The notes below the pieces were generated by a model that was given only the letters and a program-made list of their open reading frames with translations, ran no database searches and was not told the origin of the DNA. Shown here piece by piece: positions 37,456 through 53,449 of a DNA stretch of 64,000 nt (position 1 is the first letter of the stretch; every line of letters starts with the position of its first letter). Source of the DNA: Bacteroidota bacterium (GTDB taxonomy: Bacteria; Bacteroidota; Bacteroidia; UKL13-3); NCBI GenBank assembly GCA_030680835.1, contig JAUXUD010000014.1:18965-82964 (forward strand), read 5' to 3'. The translations under genes were made by a program, and so were the position numbers.

Positions 37456-38487
37456 ATGTTAAATAAAAAAGTATTATTAATTACCGGTGGAACAGGTTCA
37501 TTCGGAAATGCGGTCTTAAATCGATTTTTGAATACTGATCATTTTAAAGAAATCAGAATATTTTCAAGGGATGAAAAAAAACAGGACGATATGAGGAATC
37601 AATTTAAGAATGACAAATTGAAATTCTATATCGGCGATGTACGTGATTTTAATAGCATTGAGAGGGCAATGCGAGGAGTAGATTATGTATTTCATGCCGC
37701 CGCACTAAAACAGGTGCCATCTTGTGAGTTTTTCCCTATTGAAGCTGCAAAAACAAATGTATTTGGCACACAAAATGTGATTGACGCTGCTGCAGCAAAT
37801 AATGTAAAAAAAGTTATTTGTTTAAGCACAGACAAGGCTGCTTATCCAATAAATGCAATGGGAATATCAAAAGCCTTGATGGAAAAAGTAGCAGTGGCTG
37901 CATCCAGAAGTCTAACCAACACCACAGTTTGTCTGACAAGATATGGAAATGTGATGGCCTCAAGGGGCTCCGTAATTCCTCTGTTTTTAAAACAAATCAA
38001 ATCCGGCCAACCCATAACAATTACCGACCAAAAAATGACAAGGTTCCTTATGTCATTGGAGGACGCTGTTGAGCTGGTATTATTTGCCTTTGAACATGGT
38101 AACCAGGGTGATTTATTTGTAAACAAAGCACCGGCAGGAACGATTGGTGACCTGGCTCAGGCGTTGAAGGAAATTTGTGAGGCTAATACAGAAATAAAAA
38201 TCATTGGAACGCGACATGGAGAAAAATTATATGAAACACTTTGTACCCGTGAAGAGATGAAGAAAGCTGAAGATATGGGAGAATTTTACAGAGTTCCTGC
38301 TGATAACAGGGATTTGAATTATGCCCAGTATTTCTCTGAAGGAGAACAAGACATATCCCTGATTGAGGATTATCATTCACACAATACAACCCAATTAGAT
38401 ATTGAAGGAATGAAAAAACTATTAATGAAGTTGCCTTTAATACGGAAAGAGGTGTTTGGAGAAGATGTAGCTCAAATGCCGGGTTAG
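37456..38487 (+). CDS. UDP-N-acetylglucosamine 4,6-dehydratase/5-epimerase (CapE/FnlA/WbjB family)
   Basis: MLNKKVLLITGGTGSFGNAVLNRFL and the 343-aa length are typical of CapE/FnlA. Confidence 0.85.
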   Translation: MLNKKVLLITGGTGSFGNAVLNRFLNTDHFKEIRIFSRDEKKQDDMRNQFKNDKLKFYIGDVRDFNSIERAMRGVDYVFHAAALKQVPSCEFFPIEAAKTNVFGTQNVIDAAAANNVKKVICLSTDKAAYPINAMGISKALMEKVAVAASRSLTNTTVCLTRYGNVMASRGSVIPLFLKQIKSGQPITITDQKMTRFLMSLEDAVELVLFAFEHGNQGDLFVNKAPAGTIGDLAQALKEICEANTEIKIIGTRHGEKLYETLCTREEMKKAEDMGEFYRVPADNRDLNYAQYFSEGEQDISLIEDYHSHNTTQLDIEGMKKLLMKLPLIRKEVFGEDVAQMPG

Positions 38488-38488
38488 G

Positions 38489-38636
38489 AGAAAGTAAAAA
38501 GTAAAAAGTAAAAAGTAAAAAGTAAAAAGTAAAAAGTAAAAAGTAAAAAGTGAAAATTGAAAAGTGAAAAGTAAAAAGTAAAAAGTAAAAAGTTAAAAGT
38601 TAAAAGAGAAAAGAAAATAGTGAATAGTAAAAAGTA
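38489..38636. repeat. heptanucleotide tandem array (AAAAGTA)n, about 18 to 20 units with a few variant units
   Basis: Read directly: agtaaaaagtaaaaagtaaaaag... The minus-strand 74-aa ORF here is a repeat artefact (FTFYFLLFTF...). Confidence 0.9.
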
Positions 38637-38719
38637 ATTAGTTTCAGTGCCAACCACATGAATCACTTCACACCTATCCATACTTACTTTTGCCTTTTTA
38701 CTACTCACAAGAATCTAAA

Positions 38720-39133
38720 ATGTCCCCTAAAATAATCAAAGGTAACATTCACTCTGACTCAAGAGGAACATTGTATTATAATAATGATTTTGATGCTTCT
38801 CAAATCAAGCGAATTTATTTTATTGAAAATATAGACACTGATTTTATAAGAGGCTGGCAGGGACATAAGATTGAACAAAGGTGGTTTTCGGCTGTACTTG
38901 GATCTTTTAGAATTAGCATCTTGCCAATAGTGAGTTTTGAATCTTCTACTCAGAAAGTGAAGCCTCTTATATTTGAACTTTTTTCAAAACAACTGGACGT
39001 TTTGCATACACCTGGGGGTTATGTAACCGCCATTCAGGCATTGGAATCAAACGCTAAATTATTGGTAATGGCCGATTACCATTTAGGAGAGATAAATGAC
39101 GAATATCGATTTGAAGTAAAAAGTATAAAGTAA
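38720..39133 (+). CDS. small WxcM-like cupin-domain protein (putative sugar ketoisomerase-like)
   Basis: SDSRGTLYY...IKRIYFI...RGWQGHK resembles the FdtA/WxcM C-terminal domain. The ATG at 38720 is chosen over the TTG at 38690. Confidence 0.45.
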   Translation: MSPKIIKGNIHSDSRGTLYYNNDFDASQIKRIYFIENIDTDFIRGWQGHKIEQRWFSAVLGSFRISILPIVSFESSTQKVKPLIFELFSKQLDVLHTPGGYVTAIQALESNAKLLVMADYHLGEINDEYRFEVKSIK

Positions 39134-39245
39134 AAAGTATAAAGTAATATCAATTCCTTAGTAACTTTTATCTTTTCCCTTTTATCTTTTCCCTTTCCCC
39201 CATTCACTTTTTACTTTTGCCTTTTTACTTTTGCCTTATATCTAA
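39113..39245. repeat. AAAAGTA/TACTTTT-derived repeat block spanning the cupin gene 3' end and the intergenic region
   Basis: aagtaaaaagtataaagtaaaaagtataaagtaa, then tttttacttttgcctttttacttttgcc. The 18-mer TACTTTTGCCTTTTTACT also occurs at 38682-38699 upstream of the gene. Confidence 0.8.
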
Positions 39246-39250
39246 ATATT

Positions 39251-40369
39251 ATGCTTAAAATAGGAATTACTGGCCAATCTGGTTTTATAGGAACACATTT
39301 ATATAACAATCTGGGATTACACCCGGAAGAATTTGTTCGTATTGATTTTCAAGATAGTTTTTTTGAAAATGAAACCGATTTAGATGCATTCGTTTCGCAA
39401 TGTGATGTAATTATACATTTGGCAGCTATGAACCGTCACAATGATCCGCAAGTGATTTATGACACGAATATTGGATTGGTTCAGAAATTAATCACATCTT
39501 TAGAAATATTAAAAAGCAAAGCTCATATTTTGTTTTCCTCCTCCTCTCAGGAGGAGAAAGACAATCTTTATGGGAAATCTAAAAAAGAAGGAAGAGAATT
39601 ATTAATTAAATGGGCTGAAACTTCGGGAGGAAAATTTTCGGGAATGATTATTCCTAATGTATTCGGACCCTTTGGGCACCCAAATTACAATTCATTTATT
39701 GCCACTTTTAGCCATAAATTAACCCATGGTGAAATACCAAAACTTGAGGTAGATGGTTCAGTAAAATTAATTTATGTTGGAGAATTGGTGGCTGAAATTC
39801 TGTCGGAAATCAGAAGTGGAAAAGGTAATAATGAGTTTATAATTCCATATACTTCTGAATCAAAAGTTTCAGAAATATTAAATTTATTAGAAATATACAA
39901 GGAACAATATTTTGTAAAAGGAGAAATTCCAACCATCAACAACCGCTTTGAATTAAATTTATTCAACACCTTTCGTTGTTATATGGATATTGCCAACCAT
40001 TTCCCTTTTAAATACATACAACACACCGATCAAAGAGGTTCGTTTGTTGAAATTATTCGCTTAGGAATTGGCGGGCAAGTATCTTTCTCCACTACTGTGC
40101 CAGGCATCACAAGAGGAAATCATTTTCATACACGGAAGATTGAAAGGTTTTCTGTAATTAAAGGGAAAGCATTGATACAGCTTCGAAAAATTGGAAGTAC
40201 AAAAGTATTAGACTTTTACCTGGATGGCAATGAACCCGCCTATGTTGATATGCCTATATGGTATACGCATAATATAAAGAACATTGGTGATGAAGTATTA
40301 TACACCAACTTTTGGATAAATGAATTTTATGATGTGAACGATCCGGATACGTATTTTGAAACAGTATAG
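39251..40369 (+). CDS. bifunctional UDP-2-acetamido-2,6-dideoxy-hexulose 3-epimerase/reductase (CapF/FnlB/WbjC family)
   Basis: The N-terminal Rossmann region is GITGQSGFIGTHL. There is a C-terminal cupin region. It lies between the CapE and CapG homologues. Confidence 0.75.
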   Translation: MLKIGITGQSGFIGTHLYNNLGLHPEEFVRIDFQDSFFENETDLDAFVSQCDVIIHLAAMNRHNDPQVIYDTNIGLVQKLITSLEILKSKAHILFSSSSQEEKDNLYGKSKKEGRELLIKWAETSGGKFSGMIIPNVFGPFGHPNYNSFIATFSHKLTHGEIPKLEVDGSVKLIYVGELVAEILSEIRSGKGNNEFIIPYTSESKVSEILNLLEIYKEQYFVKGEIPTINNRFELNLFNTFRCYMDIANHFPFKYIQHTDQRGSFVEIIRLGIGGQVSFSTTVPGITRGNHFHTRKIERFSVIKGKALIQLRKIGSTKVLDFYLDGNEPAYVDMPIWYTHNIKNIGDEVLYTNFWINEFYDVNDPDTYFETV

Positions 40370-40370
40370 A

Positions 40371-40421
40371 GGTGATTAGTGACTTGTAACTGGTGATTAG
40401 TGACTTGTAACTGGTGATTAG
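40371..40421. repeat. 21-bp direct repeat GGTGATTAGTGACTTGTAACT, 2 full copies plus 1 partial
   Basis: Read directly. A complementary or inverted counterpart lies at 40876-40930. Confidence 0.85.
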
Positions 40422-40509
40422 TTTTAGGACATTTTGAACCAGTTAATTTTAAATTAAAGGTTTCTCTATCATGCATTAACCGCGATTCACCAATCACCAA
40501 TCACCCCAT

Positions 40510-40863
40510 ATGACTCATAAAGATTTAGAGGTTTGGAAGAAAAGCATTGATTTTGTTACCCGGATATATGATCTCACAAAAGAATATCCAAAGGAAGAAT
40601 TATTTGGTTTAGTTTCACAAATAAGAAGAGCAGCAGTTTCAATTCCTTCGAATATTGCAGAAGGTGCGTCAAGAAAAGGCAAAACAGAATTCAGGCATTT
40701 TTTATATATTTCATTAGCAAGCGGAGCTGAATTAGAAACACAATTAATAATTTCCGGAAATTTAAATTACATTAGTAAAGAAAAGCAAACTGAATTAATT
40801 GAAGAACTAAATATAATATCAAAAATGCTGCAAGGCTTAATCAAATCACTAAATCTAAACTGA
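40510..40863 (+). CDS. four-helix-bundle protein (23S rRNA intervening-sequence protein family, TIGR02436-like)
   Basis: 117 aa. DLEVWKKSIDFVTRIY...LVSQIRRAAVSIPSNIAEGASR is the hallmark of this family. Confidence 0.8.
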   Translation: MTHKDLEVWKKSIDFVTRIYDLTKEYPKEELFGLVSQIRRAAVSIPSNIAEGASRKGKTEFRHFLYISLASGAELETQLIISGNLNYISKEKQTELIEELNIISKMLQGLIKSLNLN

Positions 40864-40875
40864 ATTCAAATAACT

Positions 40876-40930
40876 AACTACAAGTCACTCAATGGACAAA
40901 CCAGTCACTAATCACCAATCACCAATCACC
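40876..40930. repeat. inverted counterpart of the 40371 repeat plus (AATCACC)3
   Basis: actacaagtcactcaatgg...cagtcactaatcaccaatcaccaatcacc. CACCAATCACCAATCACC also occurs at 40487-40506, immediately before the four-helix-bundle gene. Confidence 0.8.
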
Positions 40931-40942
40931 AAGCTAAAAGTA

Positions 40943-42136
40943 ATGACCGTAGTGGGTACCCGCCCCGAAATAATTCGTTTATCCAGAGTAATGGCTAAAT
41001 TGGATGAATCACCAGCAATTGAACATATAATCGTCCATACCGGCCAAAACTATGATTATGAATTGAATCAGATTTTCTTTGACGATATGGGAATCAGAAA
41101 ACCTGATCATTTTTTAAATGCGGCTGGAGAAACGGCAACTGAAACTATTGGCCAGATTCTGATTAAAATTGATGCGTTACTGGCCCATACAAATCCAGAT
41201 GCATTTTTAGTTTTAGGTGATACTAATTCTTGCCTTTGCGCCATACCAGCAAAGAAAAGGCATATCCCGATTTTCCACATGGAGGCTGGGAATCGTTGTT
41301 TTGATCAACGCGTTCCTGAAGAAACCAATCGAAAAATCGTAGATCATATATCCGATATTAATCTAACCTACAGTGATATTGCCAGAGAGTATTTACTTAG
41401 AGAAGGGTTACCAGCCGATAGAATAATAAAAACAGGTTCTCCCATGTTTGAAGTATTAAATCATTATAAAGCTAAAATTGAATCTTCTGATATTTTAAAC
41501 CGGTTGCATTTAGAGAAAGGTAAATATTTCGTTGTGTCCGCTCACCGTGAAGAAAATATAAACAGTGATAAAAACTTTTTGGGGTTAATAACAAGTTTGA
41601 ATGCTATTGCTGAAAAATATAAATTCCCAATAATTGTAAGTACTCATCCCCGCACACGCATTCGTTTGGAGAAGCTCTCAACAGACAGCAATCAGCGGTC
41701 AGCAGTCAGCAGTCAGCTATCAGAAAATAATAGTCAGATGAAAGCTGACCGCCGAATGCTGATAGCTGACAGCTTGATCCAATGGCAAAAACCAATGGGA
41801 TTTAGTGATTACAATTACCTCCAAATGAACGCCTTTGCAGTTTTATCTGATAGTGGTACGATTTCAGAAGAATCATCCATTTTGAATTTCCCCGCCCTAA
41901 ATATTAGAGATGCACATGAAAGACCTGAAGCTATGGAAGAAACTTCAGTAATGATGATGGGATTGAGTCCAGAAAGAATATTACAAGGTTTGGAACAATT
42001 GAAACATGAAGAATTATTTAATCAACGAATTTATAGACCGGTAGACGACTACTCTATGCCTAATGTTTCAGATAAAATGGTTAGGATTATTTTAAGTTAT
42101 ATAGATTATGTGAAAAGGGTTGTTTGGAATGAATAG
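40943..42136 (+). CDS. UDP-N-acetylglucosamine 2-epimerase, non-hydrolysing (CapG/FnlC/WbjD family). Carries an in-frame palindromic insertion.
   Basis: MTVVGTRPEIIRL...HPRTR. The start is moved to the ATG at 40943. The track start at 40892 translates the flanking repeat as TNHQSPITK. The segment coding STDSNQRSAVSSQLSENNSQMKADRRMLIADS (about 41685-41780) is a DNA palindrome. Confidence 0.8.
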   Translation: MTVVGTRPEIIRLSRVMAKLDESPAIEHIIVHTGQNYDYELNQIFFDDMGIRKPDHFLNAAGETATETIGQILIKIDALLAHTNPDAFLVLGDTNSCLCAIPAKKRHIPIFHMEAGNRCFDQRVPEETNRKIVDHISDINLTYSDIAREYLLREGLPADRIIKTGSPMFEVLNHYKAKIESSDILNRLHLEKGKYFVVSAHREENINSDKNFLGLITSLNAIAEKYKFPIIVSTHPRTRIRLEKLSTDSNQRSAVSSQLSENNSQMKADRRMLIADSLIQWQKPMGFSDYNYLQMNAFAVLSDSGTISEESSILNFPALNIRDAHERPEAMEETSVMMMGLSPERILQGLEQLKHEELFNQRIYRPVDDYSMPNVSDKMVRIILSYIDYVKRVVWNE

Positions 42137-43340
42137 TAAGGATATTATTTGTATAGTATCTGCCGTTTTCCCTCCGGAACCAGTTGTTTCAGCGAAATTA
42201 TCATTAGATATTGCAACTGAACTTTCAAAGAGTTTCAAGGTAATTGTTATTACTCCGAAGCCAACCAGACCTTTCGGTATTAACAATTTGGATTTATTTG
42301 TAAATAACAATATTTTTGAGCATCATTACATTGAAAATTATACTTCACCAAAGCCCTCAATTATTGGAAGACTTTATGAAAGTTATTCATTAGGTACAAG
42401 TGTAATTGGATTTATTGAAAAAAATAAAATAAATATCCGGGCAATTTATTTAAATGTCTGGCCTGTATTTTCCCAAGGATTAATTGTTAAGTGGGCTAAA
42501 TCAAATGGAGTTAAAACTATATTACATGTGCAGGATATTTACCCAGAATCCATAACTGCAAAAATGCCATATTTATTGGGATTGCCTGTAAATTATTTTT
42601 TTAGGAAATATGATAAGCATGTCATGCAAAATGCAAGTAAGATTATTGCCATTTCCAACAACATGAAGGCATATTTATCTGAAAGTCGTCATATTGAACC
42701 AGAAAAAATTGAGGTAGTTCGGAATTGGCAAAGTGAGGTTAGAAATATTGAAACTTTAAATTCAAAAAAAGAACGGAATGCAATTTTTACTTTTATGTAT
42801 CTTGGAAGTATTAATAAAAGTTCTGGTTTAGACTTTATTATCAAGTGTTTTGGGGGGCTTAATTTATCAAATACCAGACTTGTAATTGCCGGAAATGGAT
42901 CTGAAAAAGAAAATTGTATGGATTTGGCAAATTCATACCCAACCAGTAAAATTGAGTTTTGGGATGCTTCACCGGATTATGTTTATAAATTACAGGCAGA
43001 TGCAGATGTAATGATATTACCATTAAAAAAAGGGATTGGCCTTACGGCAACCCCTTCAAAATTACTCGCATATTTATTTTCGGCAAAACCAATACTTGCC
43101 TGTGTTGAGTCAATTAGCGATACTGCCAATATCATTGTTAAATCACAAAGTGGCTGGGTTACGCCTCCCGAAGACATAAATGAGTTGAAAAAATCCATTT
43201 TGAATATTGTTAAAATTGATTTCGATGTATTGAAGGAAATGGGGATTAAAGGATATAAATACGCAAATATTAATTTATCCAAAGATGTAAGTTTAAAGGG
43301 AATCGTAAAAATAATTTCTAAAATTCAATCTGCATCATGA
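42120..43340 (+). CDS. glycosyltransferase family 4, WbuB/WbjE-like (L-FucNAc-type transferase)
   Basis: The N-terminus IICIVSAVFPPEPVVSAKLSLDIA is typical of WbuB-like enzymes. Confidence 0.7.
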   Translation: MFGMNSKDIICIVSAVFPPEPVVSAKLSLDIATELSKSFKVIVITPKPTRPFGINNLDLFVNNNIFEHHYIENYTSPKPSIIGRLYESYSLGTSVIGFIEKNKINIRAIYLNVWPVFSQGLIVKWAKSNGVKTILHVQDIYPESITAKMPYLLGLPVNYFFRKYDKHVMQNASKIIAISNNMKAYLSESRHIEPEKIEVVRNWQSEVRNIETLNSKKERNAIFTFMYLGSINKSSGLDFIIKCFGGLNLSNTRLVIAGNGSEKENCMDLANSYPTSKIEFWDASPDYVYKLQADADVMILPLKKGIGLTATPSKLLAYLFSAKPILACVESISDTANIIVKSQSGWVTPPEDINELKKSILNIVKIDFDVLKEMGIKGYKYANINLSKDVSLKGIVKIISKIQSAS

Positions 43341-47089: not shown

Positions 47090-47327
47090 ATATAACGTGA
47101 AAATGTAAAGATAAAATTGAAAACCCTTTTCACAATGATCTAATTTGATGATGCGTGTTTTCTTAGGACTGTGAGAATTGTGAATGGAAGGGAAACAAAT
47201 ATTAGCCGTTCAATTTTGAAATAGTAGTAGGAATTAAGAGTTAAGAATTAAGAATTTGGAAGTGTGAAAATGATTTCATAATTCATACTTCATCATTCAA
47301 ACTTAAAATAAAACTGAAAGATAAATA

Positions 47328-48479
47328 ATGTCAAAAATAAAATTTGTAATTATTGGATTTGGGCATATTGGCAAACGCCATGCAACCATTGCGAATGATT
47401 ACCCGGGAGCTGAAGTAGTGGCTGTGGTGGATTTGAATAAAGATGTTGTAAAGCATGAGTTATTTCCTAAGGGTGCACAGTTTTTTGAAAGCATTGAAGC
47501 TTTTATGGGGGCGAAAGTTGCAGCGGATATTGTAACCATAGCAACACCAAATGGGTTTCATTGTCCGTATGCAATTAAGATGCTTGATGTGGGTTACCAT
47601 GTGGTGATTGAAAAACCTATGGGGCTCAGCAAAGCAGAGTGTGAACAGGTAATTTTTAAATCGCTTCAGGTATCCAAACAGGTATTTGTGGTTAAACAAA
47701 ATAGATATAGTCCGCCCAGTAAATGGATGAAGGAGATTGTTGGAAATAAAACAATTGGGGAAGTGTTAATGGTACAGGTTAATTGTTATTGGAATAGGGA
47801 TGAACGATACTATAAGAAGCGAGATCCCGATAGCTATCGGGAGAGAAACGAAATCCTTCGACAAGCTCAGGATGACAGGGAAATGAGAGTGGATATAGAT
47901 AAAAAAACTCATACCTCATACCTAATACCTCATAACTCATCAGACTGGAAAGGAACTTTGGATTTAGACGGTGGTACCCTGTTCACCCAATTCTCGCACT
48001 TCGTGGATATTATGTACTGGGTATTTGGCGATGTGAAAAACATCAAAGCTACCTTCGCCGATTTTAACCATGCTGAGCTTACTGAGTTTGAAGACAGCGG
48101 GGTTATAAATTTTGAGTTTGTAAATGGAGGATTAGGATGTATTAACTTTTCAACTTCTGTATGGGACACCAATATGGAAAGCAGCATTACAGTTGTTGGA
48201 ACAAAGGGAAGTTTTAAAGTAGGCGGACAGTATATGAATGAGGTAGTGTATTGCCATATAAAAGATTATGAAATGCCGGTGCTCCCTCCTACCAATGCGC
48301 CGAATGACTATGGTCCGTTTAAGGGGAGTGCGGCGAATCATCATTTTGTGATTGAGAATGTGGTGAATACTTTGAATGGCAGGGATACGATTACTGCGAA
48401 TGCGTTGGAGGGGTTGAAGGTTGTGGATATAATTGAACGCATCTACGAGCAGAGAGATTTGGCTAAATTAAAGAAATAA
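47328..48479 (+). CDS. UDP-N-acetyl-2-amino-2-deoxyglucuronate 3-dehydrogenase (WbpB/WlbA-like Gfo/Idh/MocA). Carries an in-frame MITE-derived insertion.
   Basis: FVIIGFGHIGKRHA and VVIEKPMG. The segment 47853-47944 matches the intergenic TIR repeat (ccttcgacaagctcaggatgacagg) and codes ...ILRQAQDDREMRVDIDKKTHTSYLIPHNS. Confidence 0.7.
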   Translation: MSKIKFVIIGFGHIGKRHATIANDYPGAEVVAVVDLNKDVVKHELFPKGAQFFESIEAFMGAKVAADIVTIATPNGFHCPYAIKMLDVGYHVVIEKPMGLSKAECEQVIFKSLQVSKQVFVVKQNRYSPPSKWMKEIVGNKTIGEVLMVQVNCYWNRDERYYKKRDPDSYRERNEILRQAQDDREMRVDIDKKTHTSYLIPHNSSDWKGTLDLDGGTLFTQFSHFVDIMYWVFGDVKNIKATFADFNHAELTEFEDSGVINFEFVNGGLGCINFSTSVWDTNMESSITVVGTKGSFKVGGQYMNEVVYCHIKDYEMPVLPPTNAPNDYGPFKGSAANHHFVIENVVNTLNGRDTITANALEGLKVVDIIERIYEQRDLAKLKK

Positions 48480-48480
48480 C

Positions 48481-48560
48481 CCGTTCACGCAGATTCCGCA
48501 GATTTTAGCAGATTCAATCTGCGATAATCTCCATTAATCTGCCAAATCTGCGTGAAAGGA
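48481..48560. repeat. REP-like palindromic element: TTCACGCAGAT (GCAGAT x3) ... (ATCTGC x3) ATCTGCGTGAA
   Basis: Read directly. Related copies are at 50396-50510 and 51025-51100. Confidence 0.85.
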
Positions 48561-49149: not shown

Positions 49150-49264
49150 TTTTTAAAATTCTTATGCTACAAAGAAACAAAGGAACAAATAGTGACTCGA
49201 AATTTCTTATAGTCGTACTTTGTTTCTTTGTGCCTTTGTAGCAAAAAAAAAGTGAAAACATAAA

Positions 49265-50389: not shown

Positions 50390-50395
50390 TATACG

Positions 50396-50510
50396 GTTCA
50401 CGCACCCTTCGACAGGCTCAGGGTGACAAAAAGATTAAAGCAGATTATCGGAGATTAATTTCTGCGATAATCTGCTTTAATCTGCGACATCTGCGTGAGT
50501 GTGAAAAATT
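50396..50510. repeat. composite repeat: GTTCACGCA, then a solo MITE TIR (CCTTCGACAGGCTCAGGGTGACA), then ATCTGCG palindromic repeats
   Basis: Read directly. Confidence 0.8.
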
Positions 50511-50524
50511 AAAACCCAATCACA

Positions 50525-51049
50525 ATGCAAAAGCCATTAAGCTTTTTTTTAATCTTTGCAGCAAGTTATATTCTATTGAACCTGCTGTACCAGGCTTTGC
50601 TTTATTACTATACTCCCCTGCCCGATTTGTTTACGGTTGCTGTTACACGAGTTACTTTAACGTTATTACCCAACTTAAGCTATCAAACACTTTCTCATGC
50701 GACCGGACTGCAAATAATATCTGCCACACATGCAATTGTTAATATTAAAGAAGGATGCAATGGGATAGCGGTTTGGATTGCTTTGTTGAGTTTTATTATT
50801 GCTTTTAAATCCGGGAGTTTTAAAGCATATCTTATTTTTATTCCTGTTTCATTTATTATTATTCAGGTATGTAATGTTTTGAGGTTATATTTATTGATTC
50901 AGATTAAAATGAACCGGGTTTATTATTTTGATTTTTTTCATACCTATATTTTCCCGGCAATTATTTATTTATTTGCTTTTTTGTTGATGGTGGTTTGGGT
51001 TATGAGATTTGTTAAAGTGATACCTGTTCACGCAGATTATAAAGATTAA
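50525..51049 (+). CDS. exosortase-family membrane protein, XrtF-like
   Basis: 174 aa, polytopic. KEGCNGI (candidate active-site Cys) and CNVLRLY (conserved Arg) resemble exosortase motifs. The C-terminus runs into the REP-like element. Confidence 0.45.
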   Translation: MQKPLSFFLIFAASYILLNLLYQALLYYYTPLPDLFTVAVTRVTLTLLPNLSYQTLSHATGLQIISATHAIVNIKEGCNGIAVWIALLSFIIAFKSGSFKAYLIFIPVSFIIIQVCNVLRLYLLIQIKMNRVYYFDFFHTYIFPAIIYLFAFLLMVVWVMRFVKVIPVHADYKD

Positions 51050-51122
51050 AGCTGATTTGGGAGATGCGAATCTGCGAAATCTGCGTGAAAGGAAAAAACG
51101 CTCAAACCAAACAGCATTATCA

Positions 51123-51515: not shown

Positions 51516-51730
51516 CATTCATCCATTTATTAATTAAATTACGCCCTTTCAGGGCTTAGGAATTTGTGGGCTTCATTGAACGATGGGCTTCACCCATCGC
51601 TATTGATGGCGGCCTTTCAGGCCTGGGATTATTCGCTTAAATTTTTATATTTTTTAATGATAATTTTGTGGGAAGGTGGGAAGGGCAAAATGCAATTTGC
51701 CCGTACCAGTGATTTTATATAGATTTGTTT

Positions 51731-53449
51731 ATGTTGTTTTTGATTGCTTATTTTATTTTTGTTTTTGTTTTGCTGTTTGTTTATGGGGTGCTGCCATTTG
51801 TTTTTTTGAAACAGGTTCCGCCGCGAAATCCGTTTGTGGGTTTTGTTCTTGGGTTTGCAGTGCTGGGGTTTATGAGCATTTTGTTTTGGGTGGGTGGGCC
51901 TGTTAATTTTCTTTGTTTTTGGGTTACGGTTTTGGGGGCTGTTGTTGCACTATGGATGAACCGGGAATATTATTTATTGGCGTTTACGCAATTAATTAAT
52001 TGGGTCAGACAACAAGCCCTTTTTGAAAAGGCATTGATTGGATTGTTGTTAATTGTGATTCTCTACCAAAGTGCGCAAGCACCAAAAATTAATGATATGG
52101 GCATGTATTATTTACAAACCATGCAATGGATGCACAGTTATGGTTTGGTTCATGGGCTTGCTAACCTGCATCCTGCATTGGGATTGGGTTCAGCCTGGCA
52201 TAGCCTTGTGGTTTTATTGGATCCGTTTTCAATTGGATTGGGGCATTTTTGGCAATTAAATGGGGTGTTGCTGTATGTGTTTATTTTGTTTTGTTGGTTT
52301 GAAATTAAACAATATGCTTCTGTTTATTTATGGATTGTATTTATTATTTCTATTCCTGTTTCGTTTATGTATCTTACGGCTCCGAGTCCGGATTTGCCTG
52401 TTTTATTATTGAGTGGGATTTTGTTTTATACTGTTTGGTTTCTTACTGATAAAATACATTGGTTTACACTACTGCTTTTATGTGTATTTATATTTGCCTG
52501 CAAGCCTCCGGCTTTTTTGGCGGTGTTGATGGCTTTTGTAGTTTTTATTAGCATCGTTAAATCAGCAAAAAAAAGAATACTTTTTATTTTTTTTGGATTG
52601 CTTTTGTGTTCATTAGTTTTATATAAAAATTATATTTTATCGGGCTATTTGTTGTACCCTTATAGTAAGCCGGATATTATGGATGTAAGCTGGAAGGTGC
52701 CTGCAGATTGGAATGCAGCCTACACTAAGGGTATTGTTAGTTGGGGATTAAGGGACAAATGGGACTTGGGGGACAAGGGGGACTTATGGGGGAATTATGG
52801 GGGAAATACCAGGTTATGGGTTTGGTTGACACGATTGGGGTATAAGGGGTTTATGAATAAGCTGATTTTTTTGAATTTTTTGTTGGGGCTTGTGAATTTA
52901 TTTTTGGGACTTAAAGCTAAGAAAATATTTTCGAAAGATTATTTGGTTTTGATTGCTATTCTGTTTATTCAAATCATTGAATGGTTGATGTTGAGTCAGT
53001 ATCGGTTGATGTTGCCAGGCAGTTTGGTTTTAGTTGGATTTAATTTTTATTTAATTGTAAATTCATTTAAAATTGAAAATTCATGGCTAACACGATTTAA
53101 TTTATCATTTAAACCTTTGGTTGTTTATGCCCTTATGATGTTTTACGGGCTTGCATTAATTCCTTTTAGTGTATTCTCTAAAGGATCGAGGAACAAAACG
53201 ATTACCCGATTGGACGGGTTTAATAGCAATTATTTGATTGAACCATACAAGGGATTTGTTAATGAAAAAATGGATAGTATAATTGTTGATTCTATGAATA
53301 TTTATTATTATCCCAATCAAACTTATTGCTGGGATTGTGCGATTCCTTGTGTGAGTAATTCACATAGGAAATTTCTGTTTAATAATTTTGAATATACTGT
53401 GAAGCCTTTGGGTACAAGGGTTTCGGAGGGATTTATGTTGATTAAATAG
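51731..53449 (+). CDS. large polytopic membrane protein of unknown function (N-terminal ~400 aa hydrophobic, C-terminal soluble region)
   Basis: Continuous 570-aa ORF. The smaller overlapping + ORFs (51676..51906, 52071..52259) are rejected. Confidence 0.45.
   Translation: MLFLIAYFIFVFVLLFVYGVLPFVFLKQVPPRNPFVGFVLGFAVLGFMSILFWVGGPVNFLCFWVTVLGAVVALWMNREYYLLAFTQLINWVRQQALFEKALIGLLLIVILYQSAQAPKINDMGMYYLQTMQWMHSYGLVHGLANLHPALGLGSAWHSLVVLLDPFSIGLGHFWQLNGVLLYVFILFCWFEIKQYASVYLWIVFIISIPVSFMYLTAPSPDLPVLLLSGILFYTVWFLTDKIHWFTLLLLCVFIFACKPPAFLAVLMAFVVFISIVKSAKKRILFIFFGLLLCSLVLYKNYILSGYLLYPYSKPDIMDVSWKVPADWNAAYTKGIVSWGLRDKWDLGDKGDLWGNYGGNTRLWVWLTRLGYKGFMNKLIFLNFLLGLVNLFLGLKAKKIFSKDYLVLIAILFIQIIEWLMLSQYRLMLPGSLVLVGFNFYLIVNSFKIENSWLTRFNLSFKPLVVYALMMFYGLALIPFSVFSKGSRNKTITRLDGFNSNYLIEPYKGFVNEKMDSIIVDSMNIYYYPNQTYCWDCAIPCVSNSHRKFLFNNFEYTVKPLGTRVSEGFMLIK

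Follow-up and report, generated by a model that had tools for sequence, protein, structure and literature searches.

The stretch of DNA analysed here, to which we refer as the window, comprises 64,000 nucleotides (nt) of the genome of a Bacteroidota bacterium and carries a UDP-L-FucNAc-type operon made up of FnlA/CapE, a small cupin, FnlB/CapF (a WbcJ-type reductase) and FnlC/CapG (a WecB-type 2-epimerase). The feature under study is a gene on the forward strand (40510-40863) that encodes a four-helix-bundle protein of 117 amino acids belonging to the PF05635 / TIGR02436 / NF008911 family and that lies, together with the repeats surrounding it, between fnlB/capF and fnlC/capG. The upstream host gene, fnlB/capF (39251-40369, forward strand), encodes a UDP-2-acetamido-2,6-dideoxy-hexulose reductase (NF047837 WbcJ, E=4e-68; PF14667 and PF01370), and the downstream one, fnlC/capG (40892-42136, forward strand), a UDP-N-acetylglucosamine 2-epimerase of the WecB type (TIGR00236, E=1.6e-70). 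An earlier reading of the letters alone (hereafter the sequence-only reading) had placed a TIGR02436-type gene of this length between two enzymes of one pathway, and the profile matches bear it out. Rfam and tRNA scans of the whole window gave no match, ribosomal RNA (rRNA) included, and the neighbours of the gene are fnlB and fnlC, not helix 25 or 45 of a 23S rRNA. A scan of 38400-42200 for sigma-70 promoters and intrinsic terminators, made without a model of Bacteroidota promoters, gave nothing exceeding shuffled sequences. We show that the feature is an intervening-sequence (IVS)-type cassette, namely a promoterless PF05635/TIGR02436 gene between arms of tandem heptamers, inserted in sense orientation at the fnlB|fnlC junction.

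The cassette extends from 40371 to 40930, starting 2 nt past the fnlB stop codon and ending in direct contact with AAG CTA AAA GTA ATG, which encodes the conserved KLKVM motif of FnlC. Its 5' arm (A; 40371-40422, forward strand) consists of 2.5 copies of a 21-mer, GGTGATTAGTGACTTGTAACT, exact at 40371-40391 and 40392-40412 and followed by a partial third copy up to 40422. Tandem Repeats Finder reported it with a period of 21, 2.5 copies and 100% match (0/100 shuffles matched), which confirms the direct copies noticed earlier and counted then as 2.4, and the arm has stop codons in all three frames. Because the 21-mer is composed of three heptamers (GGTGATT, AGTGACT and TGTAACT), the arm amounts to 7.5 NGTRAYT heptamers and all the repeats here belong to one heptamer family, NGTRAYT and its complement. 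A spacer of 58 nt (40423-40480, forward strand) separates the 5' arm from a proximal complementary array (A'; 40481-40506, forward strand) of the form (TCACCAA)2.7, and the related loci L096 and L110 have one of comparable length (about 40-60 nt) at this place (related loci are designated throughout by L and a number). The proximal array contains the 18-mer CACCAATCACCAATCACC, which occurs at 40488-40505, ending 4 nt ahead of the ATG of the four-helix-bundle gene, and again at 40913-40930 within the distal 3' arm (A'; 40898-40932, forward strand), built of AATCACC/AGTCACT heptamers; the copies noticed earlier before and after the gene are both exact. The inverted version of the 21-mer said to follow the gene is present too, although split and degenerate, with a partial piece at 40877-40889 (forward strand; ACTACAAGTCACT) and a second, exact piece at 40903-40916 (AGTCACTAATCACC). 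All the elements described from the letters alone are present, and chance would account for none of them.

Between 40376-40408 and 40900-40932 the arms are 82% complementary over 33 nt, and both the minimum-free-energy and the centroid folds of 40360-40950 pair the 5' arm with the distal 3' arm (40898-40932) around the open reading frame (ORF), so that, as in the IVS of 23S rRNA, an outer stem encloses the ORF. The resulting layout, A-spacer-A'-ORF-A', recurs in L011, L096, L100-L102, L076 and L048. Among tandem periodicities of 4-12 nt in the window, period 7 dominates (five regions, 306 nt; 0-1 regions for any other period), and all five regions fall within 38.4-48 kb. Tandem Repeats Finder gave rows at 38491, 39114, 39172, 40371 (the one of period 21), 40487, 40900 and 41678, and together with the lag-7 scan it identified intergenic arrays of at least three tandem 7-nt units, that is, heptamer simple-sequence repeats. 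Short-read contigs from the same sample (L001 and L002; Logan assembly, SRR13727518) stop inside the heptamer arrays, and because such assemblies break there the copy numbers given for the window (for example, the 21 copies of AAAGTAA described below) may be imprecise.

The four-helix-bundle protein is a full member of its family, matching PF05635 with 139.6 bits (cut-off 33.8) over residues 4-109 of 117, TIGR02436 with 133.9 bits (cut-off 24) and NF008911 with 144.9 bits (cut-off 137). It contains the motif GxxRxxxSxxxNxxE of the PF05635/TIGR02436 family (PMC3936711) in the form GLVSQIRRAAVSIPSNIAEG, and residues G33, R39, S44, N48, E51 and G52 are invariant across 19 homologues. Its sequence is similar to those of solved pentamers (2GSC, XCC0516, E=5e-23; 2RLD, E=1.6e-7). 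Avd, the accessory protein of diversity-generating retroelements (DGRs), has the same fold and belongs to the same superfamily, but its profiles matched the window protein only weakly and under their curated cut-offs (PF22296 bAvd, 33.5 bits against 40; NF033474, 31.9 bits against 80). There is no reverse transcriptase among the ORFs scanned between 34965 and 53449, the part of the 64-kb window that all our negative results for mobility enzymes cover, and no search for template or variable repeats was made; heptamer arms, moreover, have not been described for DGRs, in which respect the cassette is unlike Avd systems. Comparison of the four-helix-bundle gene with its relatives gave ratios of nonsynonymous to synonymous divergence (dN/dS) of 0.06-0.16, with dS near saturation (0.87-3.0), a pattern of purifying selection which indicates that the protein is in use. 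The heptamer family of the arms is conserved despite dS values of about 1 or more, and with synonymous sites so close to saturation the arms have retained it at a divergence that would scramble neutral sequence.

The closest homologues of the protein (79-84% identical) all lie within fnlA-fnlB-fnlC operons of other metagenomic genomes, most of them between fnlB and fnlC (L007, L011 and L015) and one lineage (L003-L006) between fnlA and the cupin gene. These close relatives are all flanked by NGTRAYT-type heptamers upstream and by the complement downstream, and the lineage of the window's cassette, found at fnlA|cupin in L003 and L101, has retained the same heptamer family there. FnlC is 74-79% identical among the close loci, having diverged to much the same extent as the four-helix-bundle protein. 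Since relatives of this protein with 59-84% identity occupy the same junction and synonymous sites are saturated, the insertion is old in the lineage of the window. On a 175-kb contig of a Flavobacteriia metagenome-assembled genome (L101/L102) two different four-helix-bundle cassettes occur in a single fnl operon, one at fnlA|cupin and the other at fnlB|fnlC. Comparison of L101 with L102 showed the genes to be identical and one array to differ by 42 nt, or six heptamers; in L100-L102 the arrays reach about 250 nt.

Examination of the same junction in related operons supports the claim of the sequence-only reading that the gene is an insertion. Scanning metagenomes with FnlB yielded 80 loci whose FnlB is 72-81% identical to that of the window, and 79 fnlB|fnlC junctions could be classified. 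The junction is empty (22-69 nt) in 33 of the 79, harbours a TIGR02436 four-helix-bundle gene in 12, a TIGR04256 GxxExxY/PDDEXK_3 gene in 21 (three of them also with a cupin gene) and only a cupin gene in one, while the remaining 12 showed no match to the query proteins, being mostly ORF-less segments of 114-197 nt, with a hexapeptide-transferase gene in L139. The fnlB|fnlC junction is hence a polymorphic hot spot, empty in about 40% of related operons, and all the genes inserted in it are in sense orientation. At empty junctions fnlC starts as ATG AAA nnn nnn YTA AAA GTA ATG.

The heptamer unit at this junction changes with the lineage of the cassette, being GCTGACA in L096 and L110, AATCACC/AGTCACC in L100-L102 and L150, AAAAGTA in L118 and GGTTAGT in L136. 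Because different lineages carry different units at one and the same junction, the unit moves together with the cassette and does not come from the target site, so that the suggestion that the repeats are the footprint of an insertion mechanism or a duplication of the target at one site does not hold: the arms are integral to the cassette, inherited with it, and their units follow the lineage of the gene. The flanks of four-helix-bundle genes at fnlB|fnlC show period 7 (0.78) and period 14 (0.82), whereas those of GxxExxY genes show a weak periodicity of 9-10 nt (0.59) and no 7-nt signal (0.48). We also considered whether heptamers could have been copied from the target site, as some empty junctions read ATGAAATCACAA, which is AATCACC-like, and as the 3' arm of a hairpin inside fnlC (see below) overlaps native-looking codons; this candidate was ruled out by the presence of unrelated heptamers at the same junction and by the match between the GCTGACN units of that hairpin and the arms of L096 and L110. 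Uninterrupted junctions had been proposed as the means to define the ends of the insert, and although 33 of them were found, the closest filled and empty or differently filled pairs have fnlB genes 87-92% identical, from which neither exact boundaries nor a target duplication can be defined.

Turnover at the junction is fast. L154 and L157/L158 share 900 nt of fnlB at 100% identity and also the initial 50 nt of the arm, but they carry different cargo, a pattern that suggests recombination within the arms. Similarly, L097, which has an ORF-less segment, and L100, which has a four-helix-bundle gene, share fnlB genes that are 92% identical. The cargo of L154 is a type-2 GxxExxY gene and that of L157/L158 a type-1 GxxExxY gene together with a cupin gene.

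The association between gene and heptamers extends far beyond this operon. One genome per species was scanned with the alignment of the 19 homologues, which yielded 80 loci, 78 of them with a clean ORF and 79 with the window added, from Bacteroidota, Planctomycetota, Patescibacteria, Firmicutes, Desulfobacterota, Nitrospirota, Acidobacteriota and other phyla; the cultivable Sphingobacterium alkalisoli Y3L14 (L016) and Haoranjiania flava LIP-5 (L018) are among the carriers. In the 120-nt flanks of the 78 loci the maximum lag-7 autocorrelation averaged 0.69 upstream and 0.68 downstream, compared with 0.45 at control positions of the same loci and with 0.42-0.52 for the other lags between 3 and 12 in the same flanks. 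A strict run score found a heptamer array in at least one flank of 57 of the 79 loci (72%) and in both flanks of 36, the corresponding figure for 601 control segments being 3.8%. The upstream heptamer is the reverse complement of the downstream one, with at most one mismatch, in 23 of the 36 loci with two arrays but in only 3.3% of mismatched locus pairings; in 63 of 76 loci (83%) the flanks show more ungapped inverted complementarity than the 95th percentile of a null built from mismatched partners; and RNA duplexes between the two flanks have a mean energy of -45.6 kcal/mol, mismatched partners giving -29.9 (p = 1e-14). These arrays and their inverted complementarity answer affirmatively the question, raised as a check by the sequence-only reading, of whether other four-helix-bundle genes have comparable flanking repeats, and with the empty junctions described above neither of the conditions that were to refute that reading is borne out.

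The unit itself varies from locus to locus (GTTTTCG, AGTGATG, TAGTCGC, CGTATGT, GGGTTAT and TAGGCAC are examples) and is common only to proteins that are at least 70% identical, for which the mean Hamming distance between units is 1.57, as compared with 3.2-3.4 for more distant pairs. Since the arms are complementary and their unit is shared only among such close proteins, they co-vary and are inherited with the gene. Arms and gene therefore form one inherited unit, and the 7-nt period is specific to the family across phyla. In 85% of loci both neighbours run in the same direction as the cassette, and the gene upstream lies at a median distance of 68 nt. The arms also have a polarity: in 61 of 76 loci (L016-L095 flanks) the 5' arm is rich in G+T and the 3' arm in A+C, and because they are complementary this polarity is the same on both strands. 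Trinucleotide frequencies in the 3' arm are lower than in the 5' arm for both start codons (0.013 against 0.074) and stop codons (0.055 against 0.091), a consequence of its A+C-rich composition that fits its place before or inside the start of the next gene.

In the window the 3' arm does lie inside a reading frame. Its positions 40901-40930 (30 nt) are codons 4-13 of the fnlC frame opened by the ATG at 40892. In four diverged loci, namely the window, L007, L015 and L018, the translated arm measures exactly 30 nt (ten codons), with ATG and two codons (five in L018) before it and the KLKVM motif after it. In L100-L102 the native ATG of fnlC has been lost and only the one upstream of the arm is left. 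Because the 30-nt arm is kept in frame in the four loci and the native ATG is gone in L100-L102, the ATG at 40892 is probably the real start of fnlC, the alternative being an internal ATG at 40943. The overlap of the second repeat copy with the N-terminus of the epimerase, pointed out from the letters alone, is hence real, but the "TNHQSPITK" stretch that was then called an artefact belongs to a frame conserved in relatives and is probably translated.

Heptamers without a four-helix-bundle gene occur elsewhere in the operon. Downstream of fnlA/capE (37456-38487, forward strand; identified by profile matches) lies the small cupin gene, WxcM/FdtA-like (38720-39133, forward strand; weak PF05523 match), which in relatives also stands between fnlA and fnlB. 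Comparison with L003 and L007 places its start at the ATG at 38720 (MSPKIIKGN...), the mechanical call, a TTG at 38690, lying in a heptamer array. The fnlA|cupin junction contains an ORF-less heptamer element (38486-38702, forward strand) made of (AAAGTAA)21 and a complementary array at 38663-38702, and the cupin|fnlB junction an ORF-less heptamer hairpin (39114-39243, forward strand; fold z = -4.1) of AAGTAAA units and their complement; read as AAAAGTA, the arrays comprise 21 copies at 38491-38637 and complementary arrays at 38663-38702 and 39165-39243. In 53 relatives arranged fnlA-cupin-fnlB these junctions measure 8 and 16 nt (medians), compared with 232 and 117 nt in the window, so that the cupin gene is a native gene of the operon and the AAAAGTA arrays are ORF-less insertions in both of its junctions. 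The idea that the cupin is the cargo of a heptamer cassette was ruled out by these tight junctions; of the earlier proposal that the cupin is flanked by AAAAGTA through a shared insertion process, the arrays have stood and the role of the cupin as inserted gene has not. AAAAGTA units flank four-helix-bundle genes in L118 and L011.

A further ORF-less heptamer hairpin, of CAGCNNT/GCTGACN units, is located inside fnlC (41673-41775, forward strand; -46.1 kcal/mol, z = -4.1). It adds 78 nt (26 amino acids) in frame, is missing from four homologues that are 74-79% identical, and belongs to the heptamer family flanking the four-helix-bundle genes of L096 and L110. Both this hairpin and the arrays beside the cupin gene look like ORF-less derivatives of four-helix-bundle cassettes.

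Repeats of other kinds were observed in the same loci and elsewhere in the window. At the same junctions a second type of cassette occurs, in which GxxExxY/PDDEXK_3 (TIGR04256) genes lie between inverted arrays whose units measure 9-10 nt and have the conserved core GC[AG]GAT(T) (L003, 6050-6790; L107, L109, L112, L137 and L170). The window has intergenic elements of GxxExxY-type units, without a GxxExxY gene, at 48478-48560, 50390-50505 and about 51030-51090, and folding of two of the three gave strong hairpins (z = -7.95 and -6.8). Arrays of GAATTAA/TTCATAA heptamers lie upstream of a Gfo/Idh/MocA oxidoreductase gene (47231-47304), and an array of 4.7 copies of CTCATAC inside the oxidoreductase ORF (47908-47940), with no partner arm and no significant fold. 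An intergenic hairpin at 49160-49250 has arms of a tandem 8-mer (ACAAAGAA and its complement; -32.9 kcal/mol, z = -7.2), and a 574-amino-acid ORF without Pfam match (51725-53449) includes short tandem-repeat regions at 51724-51784 and 52761-52912.

Taking these results together, we interpret the feature as an IVS-type cassette whose arms pair in the transcript and loop out the ORF, a reading to which we assign a probability of roughly 0.55. In the transcript of the operon the two arms would pair into a long stem, tolerant to shifts of register, from which the ORF would be looped out much as it is by the terminal inverted repeats of ORF-containing 23S rRNA IVSs. Such a stem would bring the end of fnlB beside the start of fnlC. 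With these kept adjacent the operon would tolerate the insertion, and fnlC expression may remain coupled to fnlB translation. Within an rRNA host this stem would provide an RNase III site. Array length would change via slippage, and loss of the ORF would leave ORF-less heptamer hairpins such as those around the cupin gene and inside fnlC.

Several observations weigh against this interpretation. Folded as a whole, the 591-nt region is no more stable than shuffled sequences (z = -1.2), and the extra proximal complementary array of the A-A'-ORF-A' layout, the window included, is unexplained by a simple stem model, as are the arrays of L019, which are direct rather than inverted. Transition mismatches between the arms comprise 65 G.U and 96 A.C, with no excess of G.U on the sense strand, and because selection for pairing in the sense RNA alone would predict such an excess, homogenisation at the DNA level is at least as likely a cause of the complementarity. 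A cut by RNase III within the stem would fall inside the fnlC frame, so that excision of the rRNA kind would be harmful here. Neither beside the cassette, among the ORFs scanned between 34965 and 53449, nor in the gene tables of the related loci was any integrase, transposase or reverse transcriptase found.

The likeliest of the alternatives is that of a DNA-level cassette whose arms would be the structure-recognised ends of a mobile element, acted upon by a recombinase encoded elsewhere, any pairing in RNA being incidental. We consider it tentative and rather unlikely, but it is compatible with pairing in the transcript, and a DNA-level role through homogenisation of the arms by template switching is likewise a serious and compatible possibility. 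The arms could act as hairpins in single-stranded DNA, like integron attC sites or the ends of IS200/IS605 elements. The structure of the arms is conserved without their sequence, and attC sites likewise are conserved in structure and not in sequence. The polymorphic junction with its empty sites and rapid turnover (L154 versus L157/L158), the occurrence of the same cassette lineage at different junctions, the lack of G.U enrichment and the ORF-less hairpin newly inserted in frame in fnlC all agree with such a view. Against it stand the lack of mobility enzymes just mentioned, the lack of a definable target duplication, and the 85% sense bias and start- and stop-poor 3' arm, which point to constraints of transcription and translation.

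That the 7-nt period is specific to the gene family, and that the unit co-diverges with the lineage of a protein under strong purifying selection, could also mean that the heptamer arrays are putative binding sites of the Avd-like four-helix-bundle protein, serving autoregulation or a nucleoprotein structure on the DNA or RNA of the operon. Avd, the accessory protein of DGRs, is itself a member of the family and acts on RNA together with a reverse transcriptase (PMC10053308). Such an explanation seems to us improbable, given that the heptamers vary freely while the protein motif RRxxxSIPSNIAEG is nearly invariant and that ORF-less arrays persist without an adjacent gene. Still less probable is a phase-variation switch, in which slippage by 7 nt at the 5' end of fnlC would change the reading frame and so switch the sugar pathway between its on and off states. 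The 3' array does lie within the fnlC frame from the ATG at 40892 and array copy number does differ between the near-identical loci L101 and L102, and surface-polysaccharide loci are classic targets of phase variation; yet the translated arm is constant at 30 nt in the four loci named above, the internal ATG at 40943 or a native ATG past the arm is available in many loci, and neither the inverted 5' arm nor the link to a gene family is explained. Finally, the possibility that the FucNAc operon simply includes the four-helix-bundle gene as a functionally integrated member, among generic intergenic simple-sequence repeats of the genome, for which the conserved fnlB|fnlC synteny of several relatives, purifying selection on the protein and the other repeat hairpins of the window could be cited, is very remote, being contradicted by the census (33 of 79 junctions gene-free and 21 with an unrelated GxxExxY gene), by homologues with the same architecture in unrelated contexts across phyla, by a period of 7 that follows the gene family and not the junction, and by reports of the family inside cas operons (PMC3936711) and rRNA genes (bioRxiv 10.1101/2024.02.27.582315).

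The systems closest to the window feature are the IVSs of 23S rRNA known from Leptospira and Coxiella burnetii, whose ORF is called 'S23p'. In Coxiella the same protein family resides inside a 28-bp terminal stem cut by RNase III, with two to three tandem GACAGAT heptamers, differing in number between strains, ahead of the ORF (PMC4990558), and the family also occurs in rRNA insertions of bacteria of the candidate phyla radiation (bioRxiv 10.1101/2024.02.27.582315). The window cassette shares with them the PF05635 ORF, the complementary stem-forming ends, the sense insertion in a highly transcribed unit, the tandem heptamers of variable copy number before the ORF (Coxiella) and the existence of ORF-less versions, which the ORF-less hairpins found here parallel (PMC4990558; bioRxiv 10.1101/2024.02.27.582315). 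It differs from them in its host site, an intergenic junction of a protein-coding operon, in arms that consist wholly of tandem heptamers and can attain about 250 nt (L100-L102), in a 3' arm read as codons of the downstream gene, and in an ORF that is under strong purifying selection here but decaying in Coxiella. The feature is, in short, an IVS-type cassette outside rRNA.

Tandem heptamers are over-represented in bacterial genomes, an excess that is unexplained (PMC4692102; PMC4679880). Those described so far, namely the short tandemly repeated repetitive (STRR) sequences of cyanobacteria, TAACTGA in Beggiatoaceae, Cyanobacteria and Bacteroidetes and GGGAATC in Xanthomonas, are like ours in being intergenic tandem 7-nt units, in often ending just ahead of a start codon, in their sporadic occurrence in Cyanobacteria and Bacteroidetes and in being missing from the same junction in close relatives (PMC4679880, PMC4692102). 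The published repeats are, however, direct, with one favoured unit per genome and no link to a gene family, whereas the arrays here are inverted pairs around one gene family whose unit differs between cassettes. The cassette can also be compared with two further kinds of element. Integron cassettes consist of small promoterless ORFs inserted co-directionally into a transcribed array, and their attC site is an imperfect palindrome conserved in structure. The window cassette resembles them in its small promoterless ORF inserted co-directionally and in arms conserved in structure rather than in sequence, but it has repeats on both sides of the ORF, arms of tandem heptamers and single copies in ordinary operons, and neither an integrase nor an attI site was seen with it among the ORFs scanned. 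Rickettsia palindromic elements are palindromic insertions placed in frame within genes, and the 78-nt hairpin inside fnlC is like them in its in-frame position in an enzyme gene and its stable fold. Unlike these elements, and unlike repetitive extragenic palindromic doublets forming hairpins (REPINs) and miniature inverted-repeat transposable elements (MITEs), ours have tandem-heptamer arms, and their copies within one genome share period and symmetry but not sequence. The general architecture of arms and gene is apparently undescribed: the full-text literature gave no link of PF05635 genes to flanking heptamers except for the remark on the Coxiella IVS, although database comments or unindexed literature may hold one.

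The PF05635/TIGR02436 family ranks among the largest families of small proteins without a known function (more than 7,900 relatives in one search), and its members have hitherto been familiar chiefly as the odd ORF inside rRNA intervening sequences and as relatives of Avd. Going beyond the window, we propose, at somewhat under even odds, that its genes and their inverted heptamer arms constitute a widespread and undescribed class of insertable cassettes with ends defined by a 7-nt period and by symmetry, to which GxxExxY/PDDEXK_3 genes with their 9-10-nt units and GCAGAT core may be a sister class. If this is true, the intervening sequences of 23S rRNA would be the special case of heptamer-armed cassettes inserted in rRNA, and ORF-less derivatives of the cassettes would explain part of the heptamer excess seen in cyanobacterial STRR sequences, Bacteroidetes and Beggiatoa. 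In practice, the arrays break short-read assemblies and mislead the calling of gene starts in polysaccharide loci. Arms that co-vary and a period fixed at 7 nt provide experimental handles across the whole family, and such a scenario would link three separate puzzles: how rRNA intervening sequences arose, why small "hitch-hiker" genes sit inside cas and polysaccharide operons, and why bacterial genomes contain an excess of heptamer repeats.

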